Shown here piece by piece: positions 30,785 to 59,276 of a DNA stretch of 64,000 nucleotides. How positions within the stretch are numbered: position 1 is the first letter of the stretch; each line of letters opens with the position of its first letter. The translations under genes and the position numbers were made by a program. Where the stretch lies: contig SDNY01000001.1 of assembly GCA_004524535.1 (NCBI GenBank), forward strand, positions 37,146 through 101,145, read 5' to 3'. Source of the DNA: Promethearchaeota archaeon (GTDB lineage: Archaea; Asgardarchaeota; Lokiarchaeia; Sigyniarchaeales; SOKP01). The notes under the pieces were generated by a model. It was given only the letters and a program-made list of their open reading frames with translations, did not search any database and was not told where the DNA came from.

Positions 30785-31462
30785 TTACTTATTTAACAGT
30801 TCTTTTCCTTCCTCTACCCATTTCTTTATTCTATCTGCTGAAACACCTGATATCAGCATAGCTAATTCTTCAGGATCTTCTTTTATTAATCCTTCAACAC
30901 TATTAACCCCAAGATCCTGGAATTTCTTAGCAGTAGCAGAACCTAATCCAGATAACTTTGATAAAGAGATCTCTATTTCTTCTGGTTTGGGGGCAGGTTT
31001 CGGTTTGGCTTTAGTGGCTGGAGTCAGCTTAGTTTTTGGGGGTGTTTTTACTTTAGGTTCAATTACAGTCTTTTTAGGAATAGCTTGCATCTTTTCTTCT
31101 TTTTCGATTTCTTGTACGACTTCTATTTTTTCTTTTGGTATTTTTTTCTTCTTAACTTTCCGTTTAGGACTTGCTTTTACTCTTTCTTCTTTGGGTAAAT
31201 AAGGTTTCTTTTTCTTCTCCTTTTTTTTCAGAGGTTTTAAAGCTTTTAATTGTTCAATATTCCATTCATGTGTGGATTTTCTAAAATAGTCAATTTTTAT
31301 GTTTAATTCTTTTAAGAACGCAATTGTTTTTCCAGCTGCCTTTATTTCTGTCAAAGAAAAACCGTTTCCTTCTCTTATATGCCCTTCTCTAGAGGGAGAC
31401 TTTACCGTCGCAATGGTCTTTTTGACTGTAGTTGTTTTTTCTGTTTTATCCGTTTTTTCCAT
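30785..31462 (-). CDS. Ribosomal protein eL13-like domain fused to a Lys-rich linker and a C-terminal helix-hairpin-helix
   Basis: REGNGFSLTEIKAAGKTIAFLKELNIKIDYFRKSTHEWNIEQLKAL resembles the eL13 core (R.GRGFSL.EL..AGI....A..IGI.VD.RR.N.S.ES...N...L). The C-terminus has LSGLGSATAKKFQDLGVNSVEGL (HhH). Confidence 0.5.
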   Translation of the reverse strand: MEKTDKTEKTTTVKKTIATVKSPSREGHIREGNGFSLTEIKAAGKTIAFLKELNIKIDYFRKSTHEWNIEQLKALKPLKKKEKKKKPYLPKEERVKASPKRKVKKKKIPKEKIEVVQEIEKEEKMQAIPKKTVIEPKVKTPPKTKLTPATKAKPKPAPKPEEIEISLSKLSGLGSATAKKFQDLGVNSVEGLIKEDPEELAMLISGVSADRIKKWVEEGKELLNK

Positions 31463-32296: not shown

Positions 32297-33712
32297 CTAA
32301 ATATAACTACTAATTAAATCTATAAGAGTTTTAGAAAATTCTGGCAGACAATTATCAATTTTTTCCATTCCAACAAATTTTTCAATAAATAATAGCAAAA
32401 AAAGATTAAATTTTCCTACTTTTATTTTCTTAAAGATAATATTTTTACTTTCAGATGTTATATCTGAGGATACTATAAAATCTTCCTTTAGCAATTTAAA
32501 TTCTTTAAAAGTTTTATATAAAGTTTGAAAGTGGGGGGCTGAAATCTCAAATACTCTTCGAGAAACTTCGTCTTTAGAATAATTGGCTAATATAATTCCA
32601 TTTTCGTTTAAAAGTAATAACGCATCAGCATTCGTTTTATCTGCAAAAAATTTTAATTGTTTTTTAAAAAATTCACGATTCGGGGAAAGTTGCGAGAGCC
32701 CGAATGAATATGCAGAGATTAAGCTCCAATAATCGAAAATACTCGTCCGAAAGATTTTTATAAAAAATTTATCTGAATTTTTGTTAATTCCATTAGTGGC
32801 ATATTGTACTTTTTTTATTATTTCTTCTGAGAGCTTTAAATCTGGATCATATTTATTTAAACAAACAATAACTGGTGGGAATTCATCCAATTCTCTTAAA
32901 GATTTAATTATTCTAATAAAAAGGTCTATAGATTCATCTAATCTCTCTTTTGAATCTTGGATATCAATTATATAAAATAATAAGTCAACATTATATAGAT
33001 AATATTTGCTTTGTTCAAGATACTTTTCCCTGTATCTTTTTTGTCCACCTAAGTCCCACAGGGTCATTTGAGAGTTTTGATCTTCAAAAATTGTCTCCTC
33101 AGACCTTTCTACTCCTTTTGTGGGGAGCGTCTTTATAATTTCAGAATATTTCTTTTTGATTGCAAGAAGAAAACTTGTCTTTCCAGCCCTATCCAAGCCA
33201 ACAAATATTATCTTTATTTTTCTTTTTACAGAAAAAGGATCTTTTAAATCTGAACTAAAAGCAATCAAGTGTTCCCTTATTTCATTAATAATTTTTTTAT
33301 ATTCATTTAACTCTTTTGTATTTTGTATCTGTGTAGCGCCTTTTTCGAGAATAGCTCTCAGATATTTCATATTCTCGTGAAAAAAATTTTTATTCTCATC
33401 ATCAATTAACACCGTAATTGTGGCGGCCATAGCATTGCCTCTTGCCTTCTCATCCGCTATCAGAAAAAAATATGTAAGTCCACTTAGTTTTAAGTCAGGA
33501 AATGGAAGAATACCGAAATAATTAATATTTAAATCATCGCCATCTTGATATATTTCATCTCCCATAAGTAAACTAATCGTTTTCATAGCTATTATAAGAC
33601 GAGCGCTCTCATCCATATCATCTGGCCAATACACCTTAGGAGTAGGACCTTCTTCGTCAAACACTGACAAGACGATAGATTTGATTATATGCTTTTTTTC
33701 CTGTTCCGTCAT
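32297..33712 (-). CDS. Multidomain Arf-like small GTPase (N-terminal longin-like domain, GTPase, C-terminal roadblock-like domain)
   Basis: G1 GLDRAGKTS, G3 WDLGGQ, G4 NKYD. About 165 aa precede the GTPase domain and about 130 aa follow it (ADALLLLNENGIILANYS). Confidence 0.75.
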   Translation of the reverse strand: MTEQEKKHIIKSIVLSVFDEEGPTPKVYWPDDMDESARLIIAMKTISLLMGDEIYQDGDDLNINYFGILPFPDLKLSGLTYFFLIADEKARGNAMAATITVLIDDENKNFFHENMKYLRAILEKGATQIQNTKELNEYKKIINEIREHLIAFSSDLKDPFSVKRKIKIIFVGLDRAGKTSFLLAIKKKYSEIIKTLPTKGVERSEETIFEDQNSQMTLWDLGGQKRYREKYLEQSKYYLYNVDLLFYIIDIQDSKERLDESIDLFIRIIKSLRELDEFPPVIVCLNKYDPDLKLSEEIIKKVQYATNGINKNSDKFFIKIFRTSIFDYWSLISAYSFGLSQLSPNREFFKKQLKFFADKTNADALLLLNENGIILANYSKDEVSRRVFEISAPHFQTLYKTFKEFKLLKEDFIVSSDITSESKNIIFKKIKVGKFNLFLLLFIEKFVGMEKIDNCLPEFSKTLIDLISSYI

Positions 33713-34766: not shown

Positions 34767-35564
34767 ATGTCAAATTTATATTCTCCATCCTCCATAAAAT
34801 GCTTTTTTTCTGAGCTTTATAAAATTATAGGAGATACAGACAAAGCTGTGTCTGAAATCTGGTTTGAAATTTCAGAGATTAAGATTCTAGAACAATTAGA
34901 TAAATACGAATTGAGTGAATTTTTAGATAATTTTGAATTTATTGAAAAAAAGCGTGGAAATTATATGGATTATATCTCAATCGATAAAATCAAATTTGTA
35001 GCAGAAGCTATTAAATATCTTGAGATTGATATTAAGAATCTATCAGAATTATTAGATTTCAATGGATTTGAAGCCTTGGTTCAGGAAATATTATTAAGGA
35101 ATGATTATAGAGCCATAAAAAATTTTAGATTTACAGATAAATCAGATTTTAAATCAAAAACAGGGCAAAAGAAATACGAAATTGATGTTATTGGAGTCTA
35201 CCGAAATTTCTTTCTAATTATTGATGCTAAACAATGGAGGCGCAAAGATTCATTCAGTCAAATCAATAAAGCTGCTAATTTGCAACTTCAGCGTGTTATA
35301 GCATTAAAGAAAAATCCAGAAATATTTACACAACTAATTCATAAACTTCTTGGACTAAATCCTCGCATTAGATCTTATTTGCCGTTAAAGCTTATCCCAA
35401 TCATTGTATCTATAGAAGATAATGGAATCAAAATAAACGATAAACAAGTACCACTCGTTTCAATTACAAATTTTAATGCTTTTTTGAATGAATTTCAAAA
35501 TTATTTACATTATTATAAGGTTGTAGAAATTAAGAAAGTAAATATACAGAAACAATTGGTTTAA
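34767..35564 (+). CDS. Hypothetical protein with a PD-(D/E)xK nuclease-like core
   Basis: YEIDVIGVYRNFFLIIDAKQW fits D...(D/E)-x-K spacing. Confidence 0.4.
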   Translation: MSNLYSPSSIKCFFSELYKIIGDTDKAVSEIWFEISEIKILEQLDKYELSEFLDNFEFIEKKRGNYMDYISIDKIKFVAEAIKYLEIDIKNLSELLDFNGFEALVQEILLRNDYRAIKNFRFTDKSDFKSKTGQKKYEIDVIGVYRNFFLIIDAKQWRRKDSFSQINKAANLQLQRVIALKKNPEIFTQLIHKLLGLNPRIRSYLPLKLIPIIVSIEDNGIKINDKQVPLVSITNFNAFLNEFQNYLHYYKVVEIKKVNIQKQLV

Positions 35565-35576
35565 ATATTTTAGATA

Positions 35577-36848
35577 TTATAGTTGATAATTAACCCCTGG
35601 GATTATACCTGCGATTCGAAATAATTCTTTGCCAGCAATTAAATTCTCTAACGTTTCTTGTTTAATTTGGTTAAAAAATATAGGAAACAAAAAATCTTGA
35701 TTTTCTGAGTAAGAGCTTATCAATTGTTTTTTTAAATTTGTATCTTCTTCTATTAACTTTGCTAGCGCCGTATTTTTATATATACGATAATAAAAACTAA
35801 TTCCAACTGTTTTAGGAGGATTATTTTCAAAAAATTTAAGACATTTTTTGGTTGACTCAAGTGATTCATTAGGATAGCCTGTTAATAAATCAATTGCTAA
35901 ATCTATTTTATATTTATCACAATATTCGATTATTATATCTAAATCTTTATAAGAATAATTATTTAGAGCTTGAATTCGCTCATCGCTATCTACAGTAAGC
36001 GTAATAAGGTAAGCGTTTGATTCATGTAATACTCGAAATAATTCTTCATTATATGGGCTTGGTTTCATATATAAAGCCCATTTCATCTCTAACTTTTGTT
36101 CAATTAAGCTTTTACAAAACTCTATTGAGTAATCTATATTAGTATTAAACTCACTGTCGCATAAGTGAAAATGGGTGTAACCTGAATCAACTAAATATCT
36201 TAACTCTTCTATGATATTTGAAATTTTTTTCAAGTATACAGGAGTATTTGCTTCAATACAGTAAGGACACTTGTTAGTGCATCCCACATGCGTTTCAAAA
36301 CCAATAATTCCCTCTTTTGAAATGTACGAAGGATAATCTATCTTCTTTCCTCGATAATGAATTAAATCTGTATCAAGTCCATATTGCCAACCGTCAAATA
36401 ATTTTTTATCTAATTGATTAGATTGCCATTGCTTTAAAAAACGAGGGAATATAACTTCTCCTGGACCTATTATACCATAATCTGCTTCAAGATATTTTAA
36501 TATTTCATTTGGCATACTTGAGAATCCAGACCCCCCCAAAATTACAGGAATTCTATAAATTTTAGCACATTGGATTAATTTTTTGACATCAAATAGAAAA
36601 AATTCATTATTAAAATAAATTGCTGAATCAATATTCCTTAAAGAGAAAGCAATTAAATCGTAAGAACTTTCCTTAAGTTTTTGATTTAATTTATCTATTG
36701 GCGAATTTTCAAAACATAAATCCAAAATATCGGCATTATAACCATGCTTCTCTAACACTGTCATTAAGTATTCTAAACCTACTGGAATTACAGGTGGATT
36801 TTTAAAAGTGTTTGGATTTACTAATAAGATGTTCATGCTATTTGCCAT
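35577..36848 (-). CDS. Cobalamin-binding (class B) radical SAM protein, divergent sixth copy
   Basis: PVIPVGLEYLMTVLEKHGYNADILD, then HVGCTNKCPYCIE (CxxxCxxC). Confidence 0.8.
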   Translation of the reverse strand: MANSMNILLVNPNTFKNPPVIPVGLEYLMTVLEKHGYNADILDLCFENSPIDKLNQKLKESSYDLIAFSLRNIDSAIYFNNEFFLFDVKKLIQCAKIYRIPVILGGSGFSSMPNEILKYLEADYGIIGPGEVIFPRFLKQWQSNQLDKKLFDGWQYGLDTDLIHYRGKKIDYPSYISKEGIIGFETHVGCTNKCPYCIEANTPVYLKKISNIIEELRYLVDSGYTHFHLCDSEFNTNIDYSIEFCKSLIEQKLEMKWALYMKPSPYNEELFRVLHESNAYLITLTVDSDERIQALNNYSYKDLDIIIEYCDKYKIDLAIDLLTGYPNESLESTKKCLKFFENNPPKTVGISFYYRIYKNTALAKLIEEDTNLKKQLISSYSENQDFLFPIFFNQIKQETLENLIAGKELFRIAGIIPGVNYQL

Positions 36849-36955: not shown

Positions 36956-38026
36956 TTATTTTTCAATTTTTAAATAATCTTTCAACTGTTTTTTAACAAT
37001 ATCTACGGCGAATCCAATAATACCACTCTTAACCTTTGGATGTGAGAATATTATCAATACCATATCTTTCAATGATGGCATCTCAACATCAATTGGTGCG
37101 ATGTCTAGAATGCCTTCAGTGCCTCGCAAGGAGATAGACTTTAATTTACCAGCGTTTAATCCTTCAATGATATCTGATCCAATCATTGTAAGATTTTGCC
37201 CTATTGCAGGAAGTAAAGTCTCCGAAATTCTGCTTGAAATTGCTGAAGCTATGATTTTATCTCCTTTTAAAATAGATGAAGCTTCAATGTGTAAATCTAA
37301 ACTTAAAAGATTTTTTAGAATATCGGTCATATTTGCCGGAGGTATTTTTTCTTTTGACTTTTTGTCTTTTAAGGACTCTGATTTTGGTTTCTCCTCTTTT
37401 GGTACCTTTAATTTTTTTGAAAGAACACTTAACACTTCAGTCATATCCTTTTCTAATCGTTTTTGTTTAATAAGTGAATCATCCCGAGGAGCCCCCGGAC
37501 CGGCAACCGCTGCAGACGTTGGATTTTGTTCCACGCATTGTATTTCTGGTTTATGCTTAAATGTTCCATATATTCTGTCAGGAGCAATAACCGAACCAGA
37601 ATAAGGTTTAGGTTCAATTTCTTTAAGCATTTTATTTTCTTTTTTAGTAGTTGTTTTAGCTATAAAGGAAGGTGTATTAGATATTTCTATTCTATCTAGT
37701 TCATTATTCTTTCTATTTGGAGATTTTAAAGATTCCATCGGTTGATTCGGTAGAGGCTCTATTTTAGGGATTTCATGTAAATCTAAATTGTTTGATGTTT
37801 GTATTTTATTAAGGTTAGGATTAAAAAATCTTGTTTCACTGGGGATTTTTTCTGCTTCTCTTCTTATTTTTTTTTTTTCCTTTTTTTTTTTAATTTCTTT
37901 AGGTTTTTGAGTTGCTATTTTAATTCTAGGAGACTTTGAAGGAACTGGAAGCAATGCCCCGCACTTTCTACAAAAACGACCATTTTCCTCGTTGTTAGTA
38001 ACGCCACAGTTGCTGCAAATTATCAT
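36956..38026 (-). CDS. Zinc ribbon, Lys-rich disordered linker and Roadblock/LC7 (MglB-like) domain protein
   Basis: MIICSNCG...FCRKCG, a low-complexity K/E/P linker, then a C-terminal ~115 aa roadblock-like region (HIEASSILKGDKIIASA...ISLRGTEGILDIAPI). Confidence 0.6.
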   Translation of the reverse strand: MIICSNCGVTNNEENGRFCRKCGALLPVPSKSPRIKIATQKPKEIKKKKEKKKIRREAEKIPSETRFFNPNLNKIQTSNNLDLHEIPKIEPLPNQPMESLKSPNRKNNELDRIEISNTPSFIAKTTTKKENKMLKEIEPKPYSGSVIAPDRIYGTFKHKPEIQCVEQNPTSAAVAGPGAPRDDSLIKQKRLEKDMTEVLSVLSKKLKVPKEEKPKSESLKDKKSKEKIPPANMTDILKNLLSLDLHIEASSILKGDKIIASAISSRISETLLPAIGQNLTMIGSDIIEGLNAGKLKSISLRGTEGILDIAPIDVEMPSLKDMVLIIFSHPKVKSGIIGFAVDIVKKQLKDYLKIEK

Positions 38027-38194
38027 GGGAATTAAATTTTAGTTTTAAATGTTATTTTAATTATAAAAATTCGATTTTATTAATGTTTATATTATAATTT
38101 AAAATTCAAAAAAACTAACCAGAGTTTTAAAATATCAGGATATATTATATTAGATAAAATAATTCACCTTCTTTATATAGGATTTCTTTTAGTC

Positions 38195-39133
38195 TCATTT
38201 ATATAAGATTTCTTTTAATAAATTAACAAGTGTGAGGTATTCATCTTTATTAATATCTGGATCTTCTCTGATTGCTAATAAATAATAGGGCGGGCCATTT
38301 TCTTTTATTGTAAATGGTTTGAATAAAAAAAATCTTCCAAATCTTTGGATTATCATTTTTTCTTCGGATTTTTCATAGATAAATTCCGAATATAGAAAAC
38401 TGTCATTTAAACTTAAGAAATAAGGAGTGGTTTGGTTCAAAATATCCTTTACTGCCGCATTATTATAGTATGAACCAACAATGAGAGAATTATCGTCTAT
38501 AATTTGAACACCTTCTGCTTTAAATTTAGTAGCGAAAGTTTCAATAGTTTTTTGAATTAAATTCGCTTTTGGATATAACGTTAAAAATATTTCCGATATT
38601 GCAGTGATAATCGACGATAAGTAGTAGATTGAAGTTCTGTAAAAATAGAATTTTTTGTATTCCATTGAATTTTTAATTTTATCCTGTAAGCTTAGTAAAA
38701 ATTTATCCAAATCATCTTGGTCCTCTTTAGCCAAGTTTGGGTCACATTTATGAAAAAAAACATAAATAGGGGGTTCAATTTCAAGGGTCTTAAATTGTTT
38801 AATAACATCACTTAAATAAGACAAGGATTCTTGAATTCTTTCTTTATCTCGCACGTCGATTACATAAATGGCAATTTCGGTTTTATCGAAGTATTTATTT
38901 GGACTTTTGAGGTATGAAATCCGATAGGCTATTTGCCCTCCTAAATCCCATTCTGAAATGTTTCTCCCTAAATATTGGAAAACCAGTCGTTGTGCACCTC
39001 GAGTAGGTTCAATATTAGCTATTTTTGAGAATTCTCTCTTAAGTGCAAATATAATTGAAGTCTTACCTGCGGAATCAAGACCTGTAAATAGAATTTTTTG
39101 AAGTTTAGCACTTTCATCTTTTAAATATTCCAA
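38195..39133 (-). CDS. Small GTPase with a C-terminal roadblock-like domain (Rag/Gtr-like architecture)
   Basis: G1 GLDSAGKTS, G3 WDLGGQ, G4 HKCD (HKxD as in Rag/Gtr GTPases). Its 312 aa leave about 135 aa C-terminal to the G domain. Confidence 0.75.
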   Translation of the reverse strand: MEYLKDESAKLQKILFTGLDSAGKTSIIFALKREFSKIANIEPTRGAQRLVFQYLGRNISEWDLGGQIAYRISYLKSPNKYFDKTEIAIYVIDVRDKERIQESLSYLSDVIKQFKTLEIEPPIYVFFHKCDPNLAKEDQDDLDKFLLSLQDKIKNSMEYKKFYFYRTSIYYLSSIITAISEIFLTLYPKANLIQKTIETFATKFKAEGVQIIDDNSLIVGSYYNNAAVKDILNQTTPYFLSLNDSFLYSEFIYEKSEEKMIIQRFGRFFLFKPFTIKENGPPYYLLAIREDPDINKDEYLTLVNLLKEILYK

Positions 39134-39198: not shown

Positions 39199-40575
39199 TT
39201 ATTTATTGAAAATTTCAACTAAATAATTCTTAAAATCACTATAATCGTTGATTACCACTGGATTTGGAAATTCAGACTTATTTTGAATAATTTCCAGGGA
39301 TTTAGGAATCTTAGGAGTTATATTTATTAAAGAAATTATTTCTTCTGGGAATTTAGCGGGATCAGCAGTTTCAAAATTAATGAGCTTATAACTGTTATCT
39401 TCGGGAAAATCGATACGATATTTTTCTAAACAAGCCCAACCTACAGCTCCATGTGGTTCAATTATTTTTTTATTATATTTCTTATAGAAATTTACAATTG
39501 TTTCTTTAGTTAGCTCATTAGTTATGGAATAAGACACTATATCTTTGCGTATTCTTTCCAAATCGGGTATCTTATGCATAACACCTGTTTCATCAATTTG
39601 ACCCCCATATAGATCAATTAATCTAGCGAAATTCGAAGGATGTCCTACATTCATGGCATTACTAATACATTTCTTTGAGGGTTCAACCTTTTCATATTTC
39701 CCAGTTTCTAAGAATTTTGGAAATTCATCATTCTCGTTTACGGCAGAAATGAACCTTTTAACTGGGAGCCCCATATTAGATGCAATTAATCCTCCCATTA
39801 AGTTTCCGAAATTTCCAGAAGGTACTGAAAAAATAACTTCTTCCCCTTTCTTTTCAATCACACTTGAATAACTGTAAAAATAATAGAGGGTTTGAGGCAT
39901 CAATCTTCCAAAGTTTATAGAATTTGCTGAAGAAAGGCCTATATGCTGTAAATCGGGATCTGCGAAGGCAATTTTGACCAAACGTTGACAATCATCAAAT
40001 TTTCCTGTGATTCCGATAGCCGTAACATTTTTTCCAAGTGTAGTCATCTGTTTCCTCTGTAAATCACTTATCTCATCCTTTGGAAAAAGCACTACTACTT
40101 TTATACGATTCATTTCATAAAATGCTTGAGCAACTGCTCCTCCTGTATCTCCAGAGGTTGCTGTTAAAATTACAGCATTTTTATTATCTTCTTCAAGGAA
40201 ATATTCCATAATTCTCGCAAGCGTGCGAGCCCCGAAATCTTTAAAACTAGCGGTAGGTCCTTGATCAAGATAGCACTGGTAATCATTGTTTCCGATATGT
40301 TCAACGGGAACTGAGAAATTTAGAGCACCTTTCAAAATCTTTTTAAGCTCAGGCTTAGGTATTATATTACCAATAATATTGGATATTACTATGAATCCTA
40401 TTTCATCAAGGGACAAGTCCTTAAATGAATAGATTTGCTCTTCGGTTAGTTTAGGTATTTCATTTAGCATATAGAGTCCTTTATCTAAAGCTTGACCTCT
40501 TATTATCGCTGTCTTAAAATCCACATCGGGAGTATTTTTGTTAGTAGAATGAAACATTATACCATTAGTTGTCAT
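39199..40575 (-). CDS. thrC: Threonine synthase
   Basis: PLP-lysine motif GPTASFKDFGAR, TSGDTGGA and PSGNFGN. Length is typical of long-form ThrC. Confidence 0.85.
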   Translation of the reverse strand: MTTNGIMFHSTNKNTPDVDFKTAIIRGQALDKGLYMLNEIPKLTEEQIYSFKDLSLDEIGFIVISNIIGNIIPKPELKKILKGALNFSVPVEHIGNNDYQCYLDQGPTASFKDFGARTLARIMEYFLEEDNKNAVILTATSGDTGGAVAQAFYEMNRIKVVVLFPKDEISDLQRKQMTTLGKNVTAIGITGKFDDCQRLVKIAFADPDLQHIGLSSANSINFGRLMPQTLYYFYSYSSVIEKKGEEVIFSVPSGNFGNLMGGLIASNMGLPVKRFISAVNENDEFPKFLETGKYEKVEPSKKCISNAMNVGHPSNFARLIDLYGGQIDETGVMHKIPDLERIRKDIVSYSITNELTKETIVNFYKKYNKKIIEPHGAVGWACLEKYRIDFPEDNSYKLINFETADPAKFPEEIISLINITPKIPKSLEIIQNKSEFPNPVVINDYSDFKNYLVEIFNK

Positions 40576-42018: not shown

Positions 42019-42576
42019 TTAAAATGTGTCTGTGAATCTTAAATTCTCAGAGTTATTGAATTTTAATAATTCATTAATTTTCTTCACAGCTTCCTCTGCT
42101 GTTTTTACACCATAAACCATATCTGATCTTCTGTCATCTACTTTTTTATTTGCCATCTCGGAAGACCAGCCTCCTACATCAGTCAAAGCAACAATAGGTT
42201 TCTGATATATCCAAGCAAGAGCGATTTCTGTCAATGTACCCGCTTTTCCCGCAATAGCTATGCAAGCGTCTCCACTAAGAACGACTACTAAATTTCTCGC
42301 TTGAGAAAAGGGTACGGGAATAGCAATATCAACATATTTGTTTGCAGCACTTTTTTCCTTAGAAGGTACAATTCCAATAGTTAATCCGCCTTCTTGTTTG
42401 GCACCTTTACACACTGCTTCCATTACTCCTGAAAGACCTCCACAAGAAATAGCATATCCGTTTTTCGCTAATAGTCTCCCTATTTCAATTGTTTTTTTTT
42501 CTGTATCACTATCAATATCGCTAGCCCCAATAACTGAGATAACACCTCGACAATCTTTTTTAAAGTCGAATTTCAT
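42019..42576 (-). CDS. LOG/TIGR00725-family Rossmann protein
   Basis: ISVIGASD, GGLSGVMEAVCKGA and IAIAGKAGTLTEIALAW match the LOG-like layout. Confidence 0.6.
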   Translation of the reverse strand: MKFDFKKDCRGVISVIGASDIDSDTEKKTIEIGRLLAKNGYAISCGGLSGVMEAVCKGAKQEGGLTIGIVPSKEKSAANKYVDIAIPVPFSQARNLVVVLSGDACIAIAGKAGTLTEIALAWIYQKPIVALTDVGGWSSEMANKKVDDRRSDMVYGVKTAEEAVKKINELLKFNNSENLRFTDTF

Positions 42577-42583
42577 AGAAGAA

Positions 42584-43597
42584 TTATCCCCTTTTTTTAA
42601 CTATATTAATCAAATCATTCAATATAGCTGATGCCGCTTCAGGTCCACCCGCCCCTCTTCCCATCAGAACGATTGGTCCTGCATATTTTGTCTGTAATTC
42701 CATTACATTAAGTGTTCCCGAGATATTTAAAGGTGAATCTCTTTCAATTAACCTTGGCTCTACGATCAATTCATCTTCATCAACTATAGCTAAATGTTTA
42801 ATTATAAGACCATCACTTTTGGCCAACTCTATGGTTTGTGGTGTTATTTTAGAGATCCCTTTAATTTTTACATCTTTAATGGTTTTTCTCCAACCAAGTA
42901 ACTTATTAGCTAATATCACCAATTTTCCAGCAGCATCGAAACCTTCAATATCCAGAGTTGGATCTGTCTCAGCGATTCCTAATTCTTGAGCTTCCTTTAA
43001 AGCTTTGGAAAATGTGATTCCCTCAGCAGCCATTCGACTAAGAATGTAGTTACATGTCCCATTTAATATTGCCTTGATCCGAGTAATTTGATTTCCTATA
43101 AGACAATCAGCGATTGATAAAGCGGGCACAACACTAGCAACTGACGCTTCATATTTAACAATTAAATTATTATTTTTTGCTAAATCCTCAATTTGTTGAT
43201 ATTTTAAATAAAATGGCCCTTTATTTGAAGAAACAACGTTTATTCCATTATTTAAAGCCTCCATAATATGTGATAATGCTGGTTCTCCAGTATTAGGATT
43301 GGTTGGTGTGGCTTCAACACAGATATTTATATCCAATTTTTTATATAAATCCGTAGGTTTGGAATCAACTTTCCAATAAGGAAGTTCCCTAAATCTTTCT
43401 CCTTTACTTAGAACTTCTTCTAAATTAATTCCATCTTCATTTATTAATGCTCCATCATATTCCACGATTGCAACCATTTTAATATTTAAATTAAATTTTT
43501 CGTTCAGAATTTCACTCTTTTCTTTTAATAATTCAATTAAACTCGTTCCAACGTTGCCCTTTCCAATCAAACAAATTTTAATATCCATTTTATTCAC
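42584..43597 (-). CDS. hom: Homoserine dehydrogenase
   Basis: N-terminal LIGKGNVGTSL Rossmann motif, VSSNKGP, and a C-terminal catalytic region AETDPTLDIEGFDAAGKLVILAN. Confidence 0.85.
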   Translation of the reverse strand: MNKMDIKICLIGKGNVGTSLIELLKEKSEILNEKFNLNIKMVAIVEYDGALINEDGINLEEVLSKGERFRELPYWKVDSKPTDLYKKLDINICVEATPTNPNTGEPALSHIMEALNNGINVVSSNKGPFYLKYQQIEDLAKNNNLIVKYEASVASVVPALSIADCLIGNQITRIKAILNGTCNYILSRMAAEGITFSKALKEAQELGIAETDPTLDIEGFDAAGKLVILANKLLGWRKTIKDVKIKGISKITPQTIELAKSDGLIIKHLAIVDEDELIVEPRLIERDSPLNISGTLNVMELQTKYAGPIVLMGRGAGGPEAASAILNDLINIVKKRG

Positions 43598-47988: not shown

Positions 47989-48891
47989 TTAAAAGATTAA
48001 CTTCATTGGTGTTTTTTCCGATATTTTTTCTCTTAATATTCTCTTACGGTAATAAGAATTTATTCCTGAGATTAATGCGATTGAAGGAACAACACATTTT
48101 GCGTATTTCACACCACCAAATAATATAAAATCACTACCTGCATCTGCACAATATGTCATAAGAGAAGCAATTGCTCCACATCGAGAACTAATTCCAAACT
48201 TTTTGACAAACTCCCACCCATATATTGCATTAGAAGGAGCAAATCCTGTAGGTAGACCTAATTCACTTTTAACTAGTCGTGTGGTTTCCACATTTATACA
48301 AATTGAAGGCAAGTCCAACACTGCCGCATCCACAATAATATTTTCAATTTGTGCTTTTTGAGACATAGGAATTAATTTTTCATTAAGTAGTTTTAATTTT
48401 TGTTCAGGAAAGATATATCTATTGCCGAAGGCTAAAAGAACAGCGTTTCTCACTCCAATATTTTTTAATTTATCTAAATTTTCATCGCTCGTGTTATCAT
48501 CAATACTATTTAATATAGCCCTGGCTAATAATCCGATTTCTTTTAATCCTTCCATTGCTGGGATCCGAATACTATCATTTAATCCATCAACTAAAAATGG
48601 ACAATCTACTATATCAGCAATGTATTCACATTGTTTTATAAGTGCTTCAGGATGCGCTCCTACAACATCAATAATCGCCTGCATCCCTGTTTCTTCTATA
48701 ATTGTTAAAAACTCGTTTAATTCTTGTTCTACTATATTTTTATCGATTCTCCCTGCCTTTTCATCTAATAGAGCTTTATGATTTTTATAAAAGACAGATC
48801 CAATCAAAACTATTGGATTTTCACCGGGTTGTCCTCCGATTTTAACATTTCCAATTTCTACTACTTTTTGGTTTTTTTCAAATTTTAGCAT
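47989..48891 (-). CDS. mtrH: MtrH-like methyltransferase (tetrahydromethanopterin S-methyltransferase subunit H family)
   Basis: The N-terminus MLKFEKNQKVVEIGNVKIGGQPGENPIVLIGSVFY closely matches the MtrH signature (F.KEQ.V.EI.G.K.GGQPGE.PT.L.G..FY). Confidence 0.75.
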   Translation of the reverse strand: MLKFEKNQKVVEIGNVKIGGQPGENPIVLIGSVFYKNHKALLDEKAGRIDKNIVEQELNEFLTIIEETGMQAIIDVVGAHPEALIKQCEYIADIVDCPFLVDGLNDSIRIPAMEGLKEIGLLARAILNSIDDNTSDENLDKLKNIGVRNAVLLAFGNRYIFPEQKLKLLNEKLIPMSQKAQIENIIVDAAVLDLPSICINVETTRLVKSELGLPTGFAPSNAIYGWEFVKKFGISSRCGAIASLMTYCADAGSDFILFGGVKYAKCVVPSIALISGINSYYRKRILREKISEKTPMKLIF

Positions 48892-48997: not shown

Positions 48998-50323
48998 TTA
49001 ACTTTTTGTTTCAACAATATAATAATCTTTATCAAAATGTAGTTTTAACAAACAAATTCCAAGTAATACAGTAAAAATTAGATAACCAATACCCCCACCA
49101 AACAAATTAGGATAATTTGGATTCAATAATTCTATTCTGGTATCAAATGTTAAATAAATGCCTAAAATGGAAATTAATCCAATGAGTACGTATTTATTTT
49201 TTTTAATAAAATCTCTTCCTATTATATCTTGATAAAAGAAAGGTATAAAAAATAAAACAGTTAGGGGTAATAGAATTATTATAGTTTTATAAGCCAAGTG
49301 ATTTAAGAATATGAAAGCAATCGCAAAATAACTGAATTTTTCGTGTATCTTCAATTTTTTAGTTATTATTAAGAATCCTATGATTTCGTACATAAAAATC
49401 ATGAGTATAAGGTTTACTAAATATTTAGCTAAGCGCGGAATAATAAAAATCTCATCTATGAAAATTAAATAATAACACACTGAGTTTAATTGTACCCATT
49501 GAAAAAATCTAAAAACTTTGTAATAATCAAAAATAAGTTCTGGATAAATAAAAAACAGAAAATTTTGAGCTAGAAGAATTATTGCTACTAATCCATAGGT
49601 CTCAAGATTTTCTTTCTTTAATAATTCGCCAAGAGTGATATCGTGAAATATAAAGATTAATAACAAAAAAATAAAATAAGGGATCATCGAAACAATCAGA
49701 CCAAAAAGAAAATAAGTAATAAATTTATATTTGATATCTTTCTCTTTTTCTTCTTTTTTGTATTGAATTTCTCTTCTAAGGATAAATAATAATATTGTCC
49801 CTGCCAAGAATTTTGATTGATTTGTCAAAAACTGAAAATATATGAGAAATCCATTTGAAATTACCATGAGAAACAAAAATCTATGAATTTTTTCTTTAAC
49901 ACCTAATAATTTTAAGATTTTATTGAATTCTAATACGAATAAAACTGCAAAAATATAATTTAAACTATACCAGATAAAGTAAGAGATACTATAAGGCAAT
50001 AATGATAAGGATATTGCCCAAAGCATAAGGAAAAATGGTAAATATGTATTTAGAAGCCAAAATTCATTTTTTTCTTCGTAAACTCTATTTGGGTCAATTA
50101 AAAGCTGTCTTCCAGATCGATAATAAGTCCAGGAATCAGAATAATATAAATATGGGAAATGGTTCACTACAATTAAAAAATGTATTGCCCATGTGCCAAT
50201 ACATATCAACGGAATAATAATATAAAGGATTTCGTTATTTTTCTTTTTTCTAAGGTATAAAAACAAGCATATAAGGAAAAATATTAATGAAAACCATATA
50301 ATTGATAAAAAAAGAAATAGCAA
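48998..50323 (-). CDS. Array paralogue P1: polytopic membrane protein, DUF2029/GT87-like putative GT-C glycosyltransferase
   Basis: 441 aa, TTG start, loop SDSWTYYRSGRQLLIDPNRVY. C-terminal class C (IVETKS). Confidence 0.65.
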   Translation of the reverse strand: MLFLFLSIIWFSLIFFLICLFLYLRKKKNNEILYIIIPLICIGTWAIHFLIVVNHFPYLYYSDSWTYYRSGRQLLIDPNRVYEEKNEFWLLNTYLPFFLMLWAISLSLLPYSISYFIWYSLNYIFAVLFVLEFNKILKLLGVKEKIHRFLFLMVISNGFLIYFQFLTNQSKFLAGTILLFILRREIQYKKEEKEKDIKYKFITYFLFGLIVSMIPYFIFLLLIFIFHDITLGELLKKENLETYGLVAIILLAQNFLFFIYPELIFDYYKVFRFFQWVQLNSVCYYLIFIDEIFIIPRLAKYLVNLILMIFMYEIIGFLIITKKLKIHEKFSYFAIAFIFLNHLAYKTIIILLPLTVLFFIPFFYQDIIGRDFIKKNKYVLIGLISILGIYLTFDTRIELLNPNYPNLFGGGIGYLIFTVLLGICLLKLHFDKDYYIVETKS

Positions 50324-50455
50324 GGCTCATTCTCACTTTCTTTATTTCACTATTTAATGATAAAATTAATCTTTCTTTAAAAATATTGATATGAACGTCT
50401 ATAATTAATGAAATTGAAGCTTAATATATTTCTAGTTTAATTCTCTTCAGAATCA
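50324..50455 (-). repeat. Conserved inter-paralogue spacer U1 (putative promoter plus 5' UTR)
   Basis: A 132-nt spacer; a near-identical copy precedes each of the nine genes. In sense orientation it contains caatatttttaaagaaag (TATA-like) about 55 nt before the TTG. Confidence 0.6.
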
Positions 50456-51796
50456 CTATCCATCTTCCGTTTTTCTTTCAACAATATAAAAATCTTTGTC
50501 TAAATGTAGTTTTAACAAACAAATTCCCAGTAATACGGTAAAAATTAGATAACCAGCACTCCCACCAAATATATTAGGATATAATGGATTTTCTACAGGA
50601 TTAAATGGATTTACTACATTTACAGATAGATAAATACCTAAAACGGATAATAATCCAATCAGTATGTATTTATTTTTTTTAAAAAAATCTCTTCCTCTTA
50701 CATCTTGATGGAAGTAAGGAATAAAAAGTAAAAGAGTTAGGGGTAATAAAATTATTAAAGTTTTATCAGCTAAGCTATATAAAAATATGAAAGAAATTGC
50801 AAAATAGCTGAATTTTTCGTGTATCTTCAATTTTTTAGTTATTATTAAGAATCCTATGATTTCGCCCAAAATAATGAGAAGTATAAGGGAGACTATAAAT
50901 TGAGTCATGTTTGGAATAATAAAAATCTCATTTATAATAATTAAATAATAATGCACTAATCTAAATTGTAAAATTTGATAAAATTTTAAAACTTCGAAAT
51001 AATCTAAAATAAGTCCTGGATAAATAAAAAACAAAAAATTTTGAGATAAAAAAATTACTGCGACTAATCCATAGGTTTTAAGATTTTCTTTCTTAAATAA
51101 TTCGCCAAAAGGAATATCGTGAAACATAAAGATTAATAACAAAAAAATAAAATAGGGGGCCATCGTTACAATCATACAAAAAAGAAAATAAGTAATAAAC
51201 TTATATTTGAAATCTTTCTCTTTTTCTTCTTTGTTGTATTGAATTTCTCTTCTAAGGATAAATAATAATATTGCCCCTACCAAGAATTTTGATTGATTTA
51301 AAGCAAACTGGTGAAATATAAGAAATCCATTTGAAATTACCATTAGAAACAAAAATCTATGCATTTTTTCTCTAATCCCTAATAATTTTAAGATTTTATT
51401 GAATTCTAATACGAGTAAAATCGCAAAAATATAATTTAGACCATACCAAATTAAGTAAGATATATTATAAGGTAATAATGATAGAGATATTGCCCAAAGC
51501 ATAAGAAAAAATGGTAAATATATCACCCCCCAATAACCATAATCTTTTTTATAAAAGCTATTTGGGTTAATTAAAAGCTGTCTCCCAGAGTAATAGTAAA
51601 TCCCAAAATCCCAAAAAGGAATTTCTTGGTTAATGGTTACTAAAGTTAAGCAATATAGAGCCCATATGCCAATACATATCAACGGAATAATAATATAAAG
51701 GATTTCATAATTTTTCTTTTTTCTAAGGTATAAAAACAAGCATATGAGGAAAAATATTAACGATAGCCATATAATTGATAAAAACCAAATTAGCAA
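50456..51796 (-). CDS. Array paralogue P2
   Basis: 446 aa, TTG start, loop WDFGIYYYSGRQLLINPNSFY. Tail ERKTEDG (class B). Confidence 0.65.
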   Translation of the reverse strand: MLIWFLSIIWLSLIFFLICLFLYLRKKKNYEILYIIIPLICIGIWALYCLTLVTINQEIPFWDFGIYYYSGRQLLINPNSFYKKDYGYWGVIYLPFFLMLWAISLSLLPYNISYLIWYGLNYIFAILLVLEFNKILKLLGIREKMHRFLFLMVISNGFLIFHQFALNQSKFLVGAILLFILRREIQYNKEEKEKDFKYKFITYFLFCMIVTMAPYFIFLLLIFMFHDIPFGELFKKENLKTYGLVAVIFLSQNFLFFIYPGLILDYFEVLKFYQILQFRLVHYYLIIINEIFIIPNMTQFIVSLILLIILGEIIGFLIITKKLKIHEKFSYFAISFIFLYSLADKTLIILLPLTLLLFIPYFHQDVRGRDFFKKNKYILIGLLSVLGIYLSVNVVNPFNPVENPLYPNIFGGSAGYLIFTVLLGICLLKLHLDKDFYIVERKTEDG

Positions 51797-51928
51797 GACT
51801 CTATCTCACTTTCTTTATTTCACTATTTAATGATAAAATTAATCTTTCTTTAAAAATATTGATATGAACGTCTATAATTAATGAAATTGAAGCTTAATAT
51901 ATTTCTAGTTTAATTCTCTTCAGAATCA
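51797..51928 (-). repeat. Conserved spacer U2
   Basis: 132 nt, essentially identical to U1. Confidence 0.6.
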
Positions 51929-53272
51929 CTAGCCATCTTCCGTTTTTCTTTCAACAATATAAAAATCTTTGTCTAAATGTAGTTTTAACAAACAAATTCC
52001 CAGTAATACAGTAAAAATTAGGTAACCAGCACTCCCACCAAACAAATTAGGATAAAGTGGATTTTCTATAGGATAAAATAGATTTTCTACATTCACTGAT
52101 AAATAAATACCCAAAACGGAAATTAATCCAATCAATATGTATTTATTTTTTTTAAAAAAATCTCTTCCTATTTCATCTTGATGGAAGAAAGGAATAAAAA
52201 GTAAAAGAGTTAGGGGAAATAAAATTATAAGAACTCTATGAGCTAAGTGATTTAATAATATAAAAGAAAATGCAAAATAGCTGAATTTTTCTTGTATCTT
52301 CAATTTTTTAGTGATTAATAAGAATCCTATGATTTCGTACATAATAATGAGGAATATAAGGGTAAGTATAAATTTAGCTCCGTTTGGAATTATAAAAATA
52401 TCATATATAAACATAAAATAATAAAGCGCTAATCTAAATTGCAAATTTTGAAAATATCTAATAATTTTAAAATAATCAAAAATAAGTCCTGGATAAATAA
52501 TAAATAAAAAATTTTGAGCTAAAAAAATTACTGCGACTAATCCATAGGTTTTAAGATTTTCTTTCTCAAATAATTCGCTAAAAGGGATATCGTGGAATAT
52601 AAAGATTAATAACAAAAAAAGAAAAAAAGGGATCATCCCCACAATCATAACAAAAAGGAAATACGTAATAAATTTATATTTGAAATCTTTCTCTTTTTCT
52701 TCTTTGTTGTATTGAATTTCTCTTCTAAGAATAAATAATAATAGTGCACCTACGAAGAATTTTGATTGATTTAAACCAAATTGTAGAAATATAAGATAAC
52801 CATTTGAAATTACCATGAGGAACAAAAATCTATGAATTTTTTCCTTAATCTCTAATAATTTTAAGATTTTATTGAATTCTAATACGAATAAAACCGCAAA
52901 AATATAATGTAAAATATACCAGATAAAGTAAGCTACAACATAAGGCAATAATGAAATGGATATTGCCCAAAGCATAAGAAAAAATGGTAAACTTGTCATT
53001 CCCATCCAATAACCATGATCCTCTTTATAAAATCTATTTGGGTCAATTAAAAGCTGTCTCCCAGAGTAATAGTAAATCCCAAAATCAAAATAAAGAAATT
53101 TTGGGTTAAAAGATAGTATAATTAACCAATGTATCGCCCATAACCCAATAGAAATCAAGGGAATAATAATATAAAGGATTTCGTTATTTTTCTTTTTTCT
53201 AAGGTATAAAAACAAGCATATGAGGAAAAATATTAGCGATAGCCATAAAATTGATAAATAAATAAATAGCAC
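51929..53272 (-). CDS. Array paralogue P3
   Basis: 447 aa, TTG start, loop FDFGIYYYSGRQLLIDPNRFY (Asp codon at 53084..53086). Tail ERKTEDG (class B). Confidence 0.65.
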   Translation of the reverse strand: MLFIYLSILWLSLIFFLICLFLYLRKKKNNEILYIIIPLISIGLWAIHWLIILSFNPKFLYFDFGIYYYSGRQLLIDPNRFYKEDHGYWMGMTSLPFFLMLWAISISLLPYVVAYFIWYILHYIFAVLFVLEFNKILKLLEIKEKIHRFLFLMVISNGYLIFLQFGLNQSKFFVGALLLFILRREIQYNKEEKEKDFKYKFITYFLFVMIVGMIPFFLFLLLIFIFHDIPFSELFEKENLKTYGLVAVIFLAQNFLFIIYPGLIFDYFKIIRYFQNLQFRLALYYFMFIYDIFIIPNGAKFILTLIFLIIMYEIIGFLLITKKLKIQEKFSYFAFSFILLNHLAHRVLIILFPLTLLLFIPFFHQDEIGRDFFKKNKYILIGLISVLGIYLSVNVENLFYPIENPLYPNLFGGSAGYLIFTVLLGICLLKLHLDKDFYIVERKTEDG

Positions 53273-53446
53273 GGCTTACTATCACTTTCTTGTTTCAGTA
53301 TTTAATGATAAAATTAATTATTCTTTAAAAATATTGATATGAAAGGTTATACTTAATTCAATTGAAGCATAATATATTTCTAGTTTAATTCTTTTCAGAA
53401 TCACTAGCAATCCCCCGCTTTTCTCTTAATTTCTTTATAGGTCTAC
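53273..53446 (-). repeat. Conserved spacer U3, long form
   Basis: 174 nt. It is longer because P4 stops early inside the long relic of the upstream gene's tail (53385..53459). Confidence 0.6.
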
Positions 53447-54775: not shown

Positions 54776-54907
54776 GGCTCTATCTCACTTTCTTTATTTC
54801 ACTATTTAATGATAAAATTAACCTTTCTTTAAAAATATTGATATAAAAGGCTATAATTAATTCATTTGAATCTTAATATATTTCTAGATTAATTTTCTTC
54901 AGAATTA
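54776..54907 (-). repeat. Conserved spacer U4
   Basis: 132 nt, same sequence family. Confidence 0.6.
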
Positions 54908-56269: not shown

Positions 56270-56404
56270 GGCTCAATCTCACTTTCTTTATTTCACTATT
56301 TAATGATAAAATTAATCTTTCTTTAAAAATATTGATATGAAAGGCTATACTTAATTCAATTGAAGCTTAATATATTTCTAGTTTAATTCTCTTCAGAATC
56401 ATTA
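56270..56404 (-). repeat. Conserved spacer U5
   Basis: 135 nt, same sequence family. Confidence 0.6.
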
Positions 56405-57733: not shown

Positions 57734-57867
57734 ATTTCACTTTCACTTTTTCTGTTTCACTATTTAATTATAAAATTAATCTTTCTTTAAAAATATTAAT
57801 ATGAAAGGCTATAATTAATTCAATTGAAGCTTAATATATTTATAATTTAATTCTCTTCAGAATCACA
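57734..57867 (-). repeat. Conserved spacer U6
   Basis: 134 nt, same sequence family. Confidence 0.6.
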
Positions 57868-59190: not shown

Positions 59191-59276
59191 GGCTCGCTCT
59201 TACTATTTTTATTTCAATATTTAATGATAAAATTAATTATTCTTTAAAAATATTGATATGAAAGGCTATAATTAAT
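59191..59276 (-). repeat. Conserved spacer U7, truncated
   Basis: Only the promoter-proximal ~86 nt match the spacer family. Unique sequence follows (59277..59489). Confidence 0.55.

Follow-up and report, generated by a model that had tools for sequence, protein, structure and literature searches.

A stretch of 64,000 nucleotides from an uncultured Lokiarchaeia-type Asgard archaeon, hereafter the window, raises the question of whether a Rag-like small GTPase of these archaea is encoded next to a regulator of its own. Two neighbouring genes on the minus strand, to which all coordinates below refer, encode the GTPase (38195..39133, 312 aa) and a protein built of zinc ribbon, linker and roadblock domain, here termed ZnRB (36956..38026, 356 aa). 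Asgard Rag-like GTPases are known, but the main structural survey calls their role unknown and reports that their partners cannot be read from the genome of MK-D1, a cultured strain (PMC10933270). Crystal structures of such GTPases now exist. Here, we describe one specific Rag-like GTPase whose neighbour, in most Lokiarchaeia apart from that strain, is constantly a roadblock protein with an unusual, putatively tethering arm, and we regard ZnRB as a concrete candidate for the first Rag-type GTPase-regulator pair in archaea, with the MK-D1 lineage, which has no ZnRB neighbour, as a natural control. If the two proteins bind, the pair bears on the assembly of the eukaryotic Rag-Ragulator-folliculin system; if they do not, the finding shrinks to another member of a described GTPase class.

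Both open reading frames are real genes rather than chance frames, since searches at E<=1e-3 found 690 homologue protein clusters for the GTPase and 432 for ZnRB, nearly all of them full length among the matches listed. The GTPase begins at a TTG codon and its N-terminus, MEYLK, agrees with its homologues. An Rfam scan of the window gave no match. An earlier note on this DNA had taken the pair for a eukaryote-like signature of the Asgard kind, which fits the Asgard host.

A two-domain GTPase of the Rag/Gtr type

The open reading frame list and its translation confirm the 312-residue frame and the three motifs on which the earlier note had based its Rag/Gtr assignment. The G domain (residues 1-186; 38576..39133) carries GLDSAGKTS as G1 (residues 18-26; 39056..39082), WDLGGQ as switch II (residues 62-67; 38933..38950), HKCD as G4 (residues 128-131; 38741..38752) and a G5-like TSIYY (38621..38635). 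GLDSAGKTS and WDLGGQ are conserved in 32 orthologues, in which H128, K129 and D131 of G4 are invariant, and in the alignment human RagA has HKMD and RTSIW where the window protein has HKCD and RTSIY. The domain that follows, put at roughly 135 residues in the earlier note, comprises 126 (residues 187-312; 38198..38575); in the AF2 model residues 189-311 form an alpha-beta-beta-alpha-beta-beta-beta-alpha roadblock fold, with pLDDT mostly 70-92. A G domain followed by a C-terminal roadblock domain, together with an HKxD G4, is also the layout of eukaryotic Rag/Gtr proteins.

Database comparisons of the full-length protein point to the same class. The best Pfam match of the full-length GTPase is Gtr1_RagA (PF04670; 1.4e-24; 87.3 bits against a cut-off of 22), ahead of Arf (8e-21; 74.7 bits), and in the PDB the C-terminal 223 residues match nothing but RagA and Rag-like proteins of Asgard archaea. 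When solved structures are compared by Foldseek, ranks 1-44 all go to full-length chains of Asgard Rag-like, RagA/C or Gtr1/2 proteins, and nearly all alignments to Rag/Gtr chains span about 300-330 columns and cover both domains. The best 60 PDB sequence matches contain no MglA, Ras or Rab. In its two-domain build the GTPase corresponds to the Rag/Gtr type, an HKxD G domain being followed by a C-terminal roadblock domain.

The front of the G domain tells a different story, in that G1 to G3 are Arf-like when compared with eukaryotic Rag proteins: GLDSAGKTS and WDLGGQ follow the Arf pattern (GLDxAGKT, WDxGGQ) more closely than the Rag one, and on the isolated G domain Pfam Arf (76.7 bits) outscores Gtr1_RagA (66.1 bits). 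A phmmer search of the PDB likewise gave 58 bits for Arl3 and 50 bits for RagA. Because of the Arf-type G1 and switch II motifs and the preference of the isolated G domain for Arf, we call the protein Rag-like, a name that makes no claim of Rag orthology.

The closest solved relative is PDB 8YL2 (E 2.7e-79, 46.8% identity over 280 residues), LokiRagO of Candidatus Prometheoarchaeum syntrophicum MK-D1, which is also the best structural match and which its entry title, our sole source for the oligomeric state, describes as a ‘homotetrameric RagA-like small GTPase’. LokiRagO and LokiRagM (8ZLA/9M28) share the two-domain layout, the HKxD motif and the TSIY(D) motif with the window GTPase, although LokiRagO, at 341 aa, has a longer N-terminus. 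Among the papers searched, none dealt with these PDB entries. The class of Rag-like GTPases is already published, and the window protein is one more of a kind already described. In eukaryotes, Rag/Gtr proteins are obligate heterodimers of two paralogues that associate through their C-terminal domains; the window locus has one GTPase gene in place of an obligate A/C pair, and tandem copies occur at six other loci (L005, L008, L032, L046, L059 and L081).

Domain architecture of ZnRB

The note's description of ZnRB, a zinc ribbon tethered by a Lys-rich linker to a C-terminal Roadblock/LC7 domain, holds for each part. The four cysteines of the N-terminal ribbon (residues 1-27; 37946..38026), C4, C7, C19 and C22, form two CxxC knuckles that are invariant in 27 homologues, and the model gives this segment short strands at pLDDT 76-82. 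Pfam zinc-ribbon models match 23-25 of the 27 family members weakly (best 2.6e-6), with the window protein itself under the curated cut-off. Judged from its sequence, the N-terminus fits a four-cysteine zinc ribbon with a putative metal site.

Between ribbon and roadblock runs a mostly disordered linker of about 200 residues with four recognisable parts. Its polybasic segment (residues 28-79; 37790..37945) contains 17 Lys and Arg residues for a net charge of +12, compared with a family median of +10; its sequence is variable and its pLDDT lies below 50. Motif A, NLDLHEIPK (37763..37789; family consensus LxLQEIPK), has invariant L83, I86 and P87 in 27 sequences. Motif B, MLKEIEPKPYSGSVIA (37583..37630; family consensus LxEITPxPFxGSIIA), keeps L134, E136, I137, P141 and G144 invariant at pLDDT of about 64-70, and it looks like a second copy of an xEIxP motif. 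A conserved helix ahead of the roadblock (KQKxLExDMxxVLxxLSKK, residues 182-206; 37409..37483) is predicted at residues 182-205 with pLDDT 71-87, and its L191, E192, D194, M195, L199, L202, S203 and K205 are invariant.

The C-terminal domain (residues 230-356; 36959..37339) is predicted by AF2 to have the roadblock order of elements, alpha-beta-beta-alpha-beta-beta-beta-alpha, over residues 233-352 (pLDDT 64-87). Foldseek returned 94 PDB matches at E<=1e-3, of which the best 50 are all roadblock-containing entries; the top ones, at E 1.5e-6 to 1e-4 and TM 0.6-0.76, include MK-D1 Roadblock3 (9JUE), a Thorarchaeota roadblock (7F8M), 3KYE, LAMTOR2 and MglB. Profile evidence comes from the family: Pfam Robl_LC7 (PF03259) matches 10 of 27 members (best 2.7e-5), distant members match weakly or faintly, and the window protein has no match at E<=1. 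R266, in the beta2-alpha2 loop, is invariant. Using hhalign, the ZnRB roadblock profile aligned with the profiles of the GTPase C-terminal domain, the longin domain and the G domain at probabilities below 1%, a comparison that is silent on binding; a recent duplication therefore did not give rise to the two roadblock domains. The full-length architecture is common to the 432 homologue clusters, and the family counts 171 representatives, no more, in 1.84 billion proteins.

Comparison with known roadblock proteins sets this architecture apart. The best fold matches are the stand-alone Asgard roadblocks (MK-D1 Roadblock1-3: 7YH1, 9JQ8, 9JUE; Thorarchaeota 7F8M), which share 16-23% identity with the ZnRB C-terminal domain at TM 0.61-0.69 but, unlike ZnRB, are single-domain proteins of about 110-120 aa with neither zinc ribbon nor linker. 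MglB shares the C-terminal helix and lacks the 230-residue N-terminal extension. The fold of the Ragulator subunit LAMTOR2 resembles that of the ZnRB roadblock at TM 0.64-0.76. In Ragulator and EGO-TC a lipidated LAMTOR1/Ego1 chain holds two roadblock heterodimers together, whereas the window locus has one roadblock gene and no LAMTOR1-like lipidated wrap, with the zinc ribbon and polybasic arm in its place; the N-terminus of ZnRB, MIICSNCG, is the start of the zinc ribbon and has no Gly2 or Cys lipidation motif.

A ribbon followed directly by a polybasic segment throughout the family also raises the question of nucleic acid binding: the two parts could be an L40e-like module through which ZnRB links the GTPase to the ribosome or to RNA instead of a membrane. 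By sequence, ZnRB resembles just two kinds of PDB entry, a designed rubredoxin and archaeal L40e, and several homologues are annotated by JGI not just as roadblock but also, in truncated form, as ‘ribosomal protein L4...’. We consider this reading very improbable, given that the similarity to L40e (E 1.4-2.8 for the two hits) is not statistically significant, that no Pfam L40e match is among the families listed, that the locus has no ribosomal context, and that Asgard genomes abound everywhere in short ribbons with four cysteines (Liu et al., preprint 10.1101/2020.10.19.343400).

Conservation of the gene pair and its surroundings

ZnRB lies 168 nt downstream of the GTPase on the same strand, exactly as the earlier note had it, and this order is widely kept. 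In 67 of 72 testable Lokiarchaeia species-level genomes the GTPase gene is directly upstream of ZnRB on the same strand, with gaps of 84-295 nt (median about 178 nt) in the syntenic genomes; in four of the five exceptions it lies 1-3 kb upstream of ZnRB. We found no description of this pairing in the papers searched. The nearest published parallel is a conserved Asgard neighbourhood that also combines a roadblock-superfamily (LAMTOR1-like) protein with a small GTPase, but whose GTPase is Rab-like (stated not to be Rag) and which has a DENN protein and no zinc-ribbon roadblock (Liu et al., 10.1101/2020.10.19.343400). Most Asgard eukaryote-like genes lie outside conserved neighbourhoods (same source), and the roadblock genes of MK-D1 have no fixed GTPase neighbour (Tran et al. 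2024, PMC10933270).

Adjacency could nonetheless be inherited synteny only, with ZnRB transcribed on its own and serving another Asgard GTPase, such as the longin-Rag paralogue described below, or none. Because the loci all belong to a single archaeal class, part of the adjacency signal is plain synteny, and the junction between ZnRB and the next, NERD-like gene, which seems unrelated in function, is as conserved (74 of 78 loci) as that between the GTPase and ZnRB. The orthologous locus of MK-D1 points the same way: the LokiRagO gene occupies an equivalent position, preceded by LOG and followed downstream by a 471-aa longin-Rag gene, with a NERD/Mrr-like gene in opposite orientation, but no ZnRB gene lies within 8 kb, and two further GTPases of the MK-D1 clade, in partly different neighbourhoods, have none within 5 kb. 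These loci indicate that the GTPase can exist without an adjacent partner, and GTPase genes of MK-D1 are generally found outside operons with roadblock genes (Tran et al. 2024, PMC10933270).

The spacer between the two genes (38027..38194, 168 nt) is of the same tenor. It contains a T8 run about 75 nt past the GTPase stop codon and, about 35-50 nt ahead of the ZnRB ATG, a promoter-like block that includes AAAATCGAATTTTTAT (38063..38078). This block is identical in the window and in two other loci (L001 and L002), where the flanks diverge, and was not found in the other 88 loci. With a long gap, a T-run and a conserved promoter-like block, co-transcription of the two genes is doubtful; a tight operon, which we also considered, is unsupported given the 84-295 nt gaps and the same block.

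Several features of gene order run against synteny alone, and we consider that explanation unlikely. Adjacency persists in distant ZnRB members at 27-36% identity, with the GTPase adjoining in three of four testable cases, and two of these have different flanking genes: one locus reads Rag-Rag-ZnRB and then actin (L081), and another has the C-terminal part of a Rag gene, ZnRB and then a longin-Rag gene directly downstream (L086). At a further locus ThrC is followed by Rag and, after a gap of just 39 nt, by ZnRB (L085). On the other side of the GTPase, the upstream neighbour varies among 63 loci: LOG occupies this place in 27 and ThrC in 24, while 12 loci have some other gene there, and the junction with ZnRB is by this measure steadier than the upstream one.

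A second Rag-like gene, the longin-Rag paralogue, recurs at these loci. In the window it encodes 471 aa (32297..33712; Pfam Gtr1_RagA 1.8e-25, Folliculin 2.3e-4) and consists of a folliculin-like longin domain, a Rag-like G domain with NKYD as G4, and a C-terminal domain of Rag type; an orthologue lies downstream on the same strand, 1-8 kb away, in 52 of 54 loci. Its longin domain has invariant GP and ARG motifs of the folliculin type (the GP/Arg motif is defined in PMC12290439), and the Folliculin model matches 20 of 20 orthologues; the longin domain, searched as a profile against the PDB, gave no match. These sub-threshold Pfam matches and two motifs suggest a link to folliculin, and a longin protein of this kind near the GTPase and ZnRB is a point of likeness to the Rag-Ragulator/EGO system.

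Co-variation and a possible mode of action

A mirror-tree comparison bears on whether the two proteins evolve as partners. Evolutionary distances of the GTPase and of the ZnRB roadblock correlate at r 0.79, the highest value of all gene pairs at the locus, which again speaks against mere synteny, and when two neighbouring genes are controlled for, the partial correlation is 0.53, compared with 0.03-0.34 for control pairs. These values are suggestive only: the pairs are non-independent, and a mixture of paralogues probably blurs the longin-Rag column.

Taken with the conserved gene order, this signal suggests that the GTPase and ZnRB form a module. The best explanation, one that we hold tentatively and a little short of even confidence, is a lokiarchaeial Rag-like GTPase that has a roadblock adaptor of its own as working partner. 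On this analysis ZnRB is most likely an adaptor or regulator dedicated to the GTPase, like Ragulator or MglB in principle. The minimal module that the earlier note had seen in the pair thus stands in part, backed by gene order in 67 of 72 genomes and by the mirror-tree, while the MK-D1 lineage locus without ZnRB counts against it.

Which of the two models ZnRB would follow depends on where it touches the GTPase. In the MglA-MglB system a roadblock dimer serves as platform for the GTPase, and in the Rag-Ragulator complex LAMTOR2/3 bind the Rag C-terminal domains; structures of both kinds are among the Foldseek matches above. If ZnRB were an MglB-type regulator, its roadblock dimer would sit on the switch regions of the G domain as a GAP and/or GEF and would not be a scaffold for the C-terminal domain. 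The mglB-mglA pair is an established prokaryotic precedent for a roadblock gene beside a small-GTPase gene, on the same strand as here. ZnRB has a full roadblock with a C-terminal helix as MglB does, MglB is among its structural matches (TM 0.60-0.68), and the invariant R266 in the beta2-alpha2 loop would suit such a role. The mirror-tree, if anything, also favours MglB-like action, since the partial correlation of the ZnRB roadblock is 0.56 for the G domain and 0.39 for the roadblock domain of the GTPase. Nevertheless, we judge an MglB-type mode to be improbable. Judged by the sequence matches above, this is no MglA-like GTPase, and its own fused roadblock domain would fill the platform position under the G domain, as in Rag/Gtr structures; moreover, known Rag GAPs use a longin and not a roadblock domain, and at this locus a folliculin-like longin is fused to the nearby paralogue.

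For the preferred adaptor reading we propose the following mechanism. The GTPase would dimerise or oligomerise through its own roadblock domain, as the Rag/Gtr precedent and the ‘homotetramer’ in the title of 8YL2 suggest. The ZnRB roadblock domain, itself probably dimeric, would then dock on the GTPase, most likely on the roadblock platform in the manner of LAMTOR2/3 on RagA/C, because the G domains of the GTPase itself would take up the other face of that platform. The repeated pair of linear motifs in ZnRB could engage a two-fold symmetric partner, and the zinc ribbon and polybasic arm may tether the complex to a surface, most plausibly a negatively charged membrane. What the complex holds at that surface would in turn depend on the nucleotide state of the GTPase.

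The longin-Rag paralogue, with its GP and Arg-finger motifs, suggests that the whole locus is a small Rag-type switch network. In its most far-reaching form, which we think quite unlikely, ZnRB would be an archaeal functional counterpart of Ragulator that anchors a Rag-like oligomer at the membrane by its zinc-ribbon/polybasic arm, the folliculin-type motifs of longin-Rag would provide GAP activity, and the locus would represent a pre-eukaryotic Rag-Ragulator-folliculin nutrient switch that predates TOR; we know of no TOR kinase in archaea. The frequent neighbours thrC, hom and LOG would, if this were so, hint at amino-acid or nucleotide status as the input.

The GTPase, ZnRB and their families

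Two genes on the reverse strand, encoding a 312-residue Rag-like GTPase (38195..39133; TTG start, with an MEYLK N-terminus common to homologues) and, after a 168-nt spacer, a 356-residue zinc-ribbon/linker/roadblock protein that we call ZnRB (36956..38026), lie exactly where an earlier note had placed them. Both are real genes, with homologues at E<=1e-3 in 690 (GTPase) and 432 (ZnRB) protein clusters; among the matches listed nearly all are full length, and the named ones come almost entirely from Lokiarchaeota/Promethearchaeota metagenome bins. The window has a G+C content of ~29%, and its nearest relatives are the bins L001 and L002, in which the two genes are 72% and 61% identical at the protein level.

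Translation recovers the GTPase motifs claimed in the note at residues 18-26 (GLDSAGKTS), 62-67 (WDLGGQ) and 128-131 (HKCD), and gives the C-terminal domain, put there at ~135 residues, a length of 126. H128, K129 and D131 are invariant across 32 aligned orthologues, making HKxD a fixed feature of the protein. Full-length Pfam searches favor Gtr1_RagA (87.3 bits, profile positions 1-219 of 232) over Arf (74.7 bits), whereas the G domain alone prefers Arf (76.7 against 66.1 bits). Since GLDxAGKT and WDxGGQ are motifs of the Arf type, the protein combines Rag-like features (its architecture, its G4 and G5 motifs and its C-terminal domain) with an Arf-like G1 to G3.

The C-terminal 223 residues match only two Asgard Rag-like proteins and human RagA in the PDB, with HKCD aligned to HKMD and RTSIY to RTSIW of RagA; MglA, Ras and Rab are absent from the best 60 PDB sequence matches of the GTPase. 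In its AF2 model (mean pLDDT 75.8), a Ras-like domain precedes an alpha-beta-beta-alpha-beta-beta-beta-alpha unit which, as modeled, is a roadblock domain. Among solved structures, Foldseek ranks 1-44 (nearly all with ~300-330 aligned columns) are headed by 8YL2, entitled 'Homo Tetrameric RagA-like small GTPase from Asgard Lokiarchaeota (LokiRagO)', followed by LokiRagM (8ZLA/9M28), RagA/RagC and Gtr1/Gtr2, bearing out the Rag/Gtr layout with C-terminal roadblock that had been proposed; the model sets its two domains at a different angle, hence the large rmsd values. This mixed character agrees with Tran et al. (PMC10933270), and Asgard RagGtr sequences have been placed around the eukaryotic Rag clade (preprint 10.1101/2024.02.28.582541). 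Given this published class, the GTPase alone is a further member of a described and structurally solved group.

ZnRB has the layout read earlier from its sequence: an N-terminal CxxC...CxxC, a Lys/Arg-rich stretch and a globular C-terminal domain. An alignment of 27 homologues reveals four invariant cysteines in the ribbon (residues 1-27), a segment of constant positive charge and variable sequence (28-79; family median net +10), two conserved and similar-looking short motifs, LxLQEIPK (around residue 83) and LxEITPxPFxGSIIA (133-148), a conserved helix (182-206), and a strongly conserved C-terminal domain (230-356). In the AF2 model, ribbon, helix and C-terminal domain have pLDDT ~65-87 and the remainder is disordered. 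The C-terminal domain again has the topology alpha-beta-beta-alpha-beta-beta-beta-alpha, and its best structural matches (E 1.5e-6 to 1e-4; TM 0.6-0.76 on target) are MK-D1 and Thorarchaeota roadblock proteins, a Streptomyces roadblock/LC7 protein, LAMTOR2 and MglB, in line with the roadblock/LC7 assignment in the note. Pfam Robl_LC7 does not reach the window protein; it reaches 10 of 27 relatives. NCBI and JGI annotations already name several relatives 'roadblock/LC7 domain-containing'.

Searched against 1.84 billion representatives, the ZnRB profile returns 171 matches, 60 of them below 1e-30, indicating a small and compact family. Matches outside it have either just a zinc ribbon or a roadblock domain joined to some other module (such as AAA_22 or TPR), and all named members are Lokiarchaeota/Promethearchaeota save one roadblock-only relative labeled Bathyarchaeota. 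The papers searched describe neither a zinc-ribbon roadblock protein nor its linkage to a Rag-like GTPase, although the wider literature may do so.

Gene order as evidence for pairing

All pairing data come from one archaeal class. With each GTDB species represented by a single genome, a scan returned 80 ZnRB loci; an orthologous GTPase lies immediately upstream on the same strand in 67 of the 72 with enough upstream sequence (gaps of 84-295 nt between tblastn ends), and 1-3 kb upstream in four of the other five. The GTPase's own upstream neighbor varies (27 LOG, 24 ThrC and 12 other genes in 63 loci). More telling than this count are distant ZnRB members of only 27-36% identity: L081 has the order LOG, Rag, Rag, ZnRB, actin; in L085, ThrC and Rag are followed, after 39 nt, by ZnRB; and in L086, ZnRB stands between the end of a Rag gene and a longin-Rag gene. 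A yet more remote roadblock-only relative (L083) lacks the GTPase neighbor. Evolutionary distances are also suggestive of pairing, short of proof: the correlation between GTPase and ZnRB roadblock domain (r 0.79) is the highest of all gene pairs in the locus, and with two neighbors regressed out it is 0.53, against 0.03-0.34 for controls. The parts, and the conserved order in which they occur, are established, and the earlier interpretation was right about the parts; the partnership it drew is plausible only, and unproven.

That the adjacency reflects synteny alone is, in our estimate, unlikely. Against a strict module stand the restriction of the data to one class, the constancy of a second junction, the MK-D1 locus and the form of the spacer. 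A NERD-like gene, weakly PD-(D/E)xK nuclease-like and convergent to ZnRB (34767..35564, forward strand), lies directly downstream of ZnRB in 74 of 78 loci, a junction as constant as that between GTPase and ZnRB. At 100% identity, 8YL2 matches a protein of cultured Prometheoarchaeum syntrophicum MK-D1, whose chromosomal locus, with LOG upstream and, beyond an oppositely oriented NERD/Mrr-like gene, the 471-residue longin-Rag gene, is clearly equivalent to ours. MK-D1 keeps the NERD-like gene beside the GTPase though no ZnRB lies within 8 kb, and two more GTPases of its clade have none within 5 kb; this lineage is a natural control.

The 168-nt spacer is long and contains a T8 run. Within it, the window, L001 and L002 share a 35-nt block (38054..38088, reverse strand; AACATTAATAAAATCGAATTTTTAT..TAAAATAACA) without a single difference, between diverging flanks; the block is missing from the other 88 loci. 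It looks like a TATA/BRE-type promoter for ZnRB, and probably serves that gene as a lineage-specific promoter or operator. In L001, the closest relative (7990..8010), the codon opposite the ZnRB start ATG is ATT; its ZnRB may start either at a different site or with a non-canonical codon.

In six loci (L005, L008, L032, L046, L059 and L081) the Rag-like gene is doubled in tandem ahead of ZnRB, with copies 44-59% identical to the window protein. The doubling recalls the eukaryotic RagA/RagC pair, and also the 'pair of Rag-like genes in an operon' in MK-D1 (PMC10933270).

A candidate roadblock adaptor

Read most economically, ZnRB would serve the GTPase as its dedicated roadblock adaptor or regulator. 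In Rag/Gtr structures, the proteins' own roadblock dimer forms a platform beneath the G domains, and the LAMTOR2/3 dimer of Ragulator stacks on its opposite side; by this analogy, docking of ZnRB on the GTPase's C-terminal domain is favored. We tentatively propose, at somewhat under even odds, that the ZnRB roadblock domain docks there, that the zinc-ribbon/polybasic arm serves as a tether, most plausibly to membrane, and that the two copies of an xEIxP motif engage a symmetric partner. ZnRB as a ribosome or nucleic-acid tether strikes us as quite improbable. An MglB-like GAP or GEF acting on the G domain is a better candidate, slightly favored by a distance correlation that is stronger with the G domain and by the invariance of Arg266 in ZnRB, yet still doubtful beside the adaptor role.

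Likened from genes and models, the locus would work like Rag-Ragulator and is no member of that system: it has a single roadblock protein and no LAMTOR1-type lipid anchor, and its GTPase is Arf-like in G1 to G3. To our knowledge, TOR is absent from archaea. The locus is not an MglA-MglB system either, given a GTPase of non-MglA type. Liu et al. (preprint 10.1101/2020.10.19.343400) described an Asgard roadblock/Rab-like/DENN operon, whose GTPase belongs to a different family. What the pair adds to the GTPase-roadblock theme is the conserved ZnRB with its architecture; the GTPase will not surprise a specialist, and the gain is a concrete candidate partner.

Surrounding genes

The longin-Rag gene (32297..33712, reverse strand) encodes a 471-residue paralogue with an N-terminal longin-like domain, a Rag-like G domain whose G4 is NKYD rather than HKxD, and a Rag-type C-terminal domain; in 52 of 54 loci an orthologue lies downstream of ZnRB, 1-8 kb away. 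G22-P23 and A90-R91-G92 of the longin-like domain are invariant and Pfam Folliculin matches 20 of 20 orthologues just under cut-off, suggesting that a Rag-like GTPase may here carry a GAP domain in cis.

Between ZnRB and the NERD-like gene sits an inserted B12-binding radical SAM gene (35577..36848, reverse strand); among the 80-locus rows listed, it occurs only in L001 and L002, the two nearest relatives of the window. Threonine synthase (39199..40575), a LOG/lysine-decarboxylase-like gene (42019..42576) and homoserine dehydrogenase (42584..43597) lie upstream of the GTPase on its strand, neighbors that may or may not tie it to amino-acid metabolism. Farther on, nine tandem paralogous ORFs (48998..62339, reverse strand; 437-455 residues, 70-85% mutual identity, spacers of ~130 nt) encode multi-pass membrane proteins, with no Pfam match in the three scanned; an MtrH gene (47989..48891) adjoins them. 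A 225-residue ORF (30785..31462, reverse strand) combines a weak ribosomal protein L13e match with a helix-hairpin-helix domain, and L085 likewise has an L13e gene near the equivalent locus.
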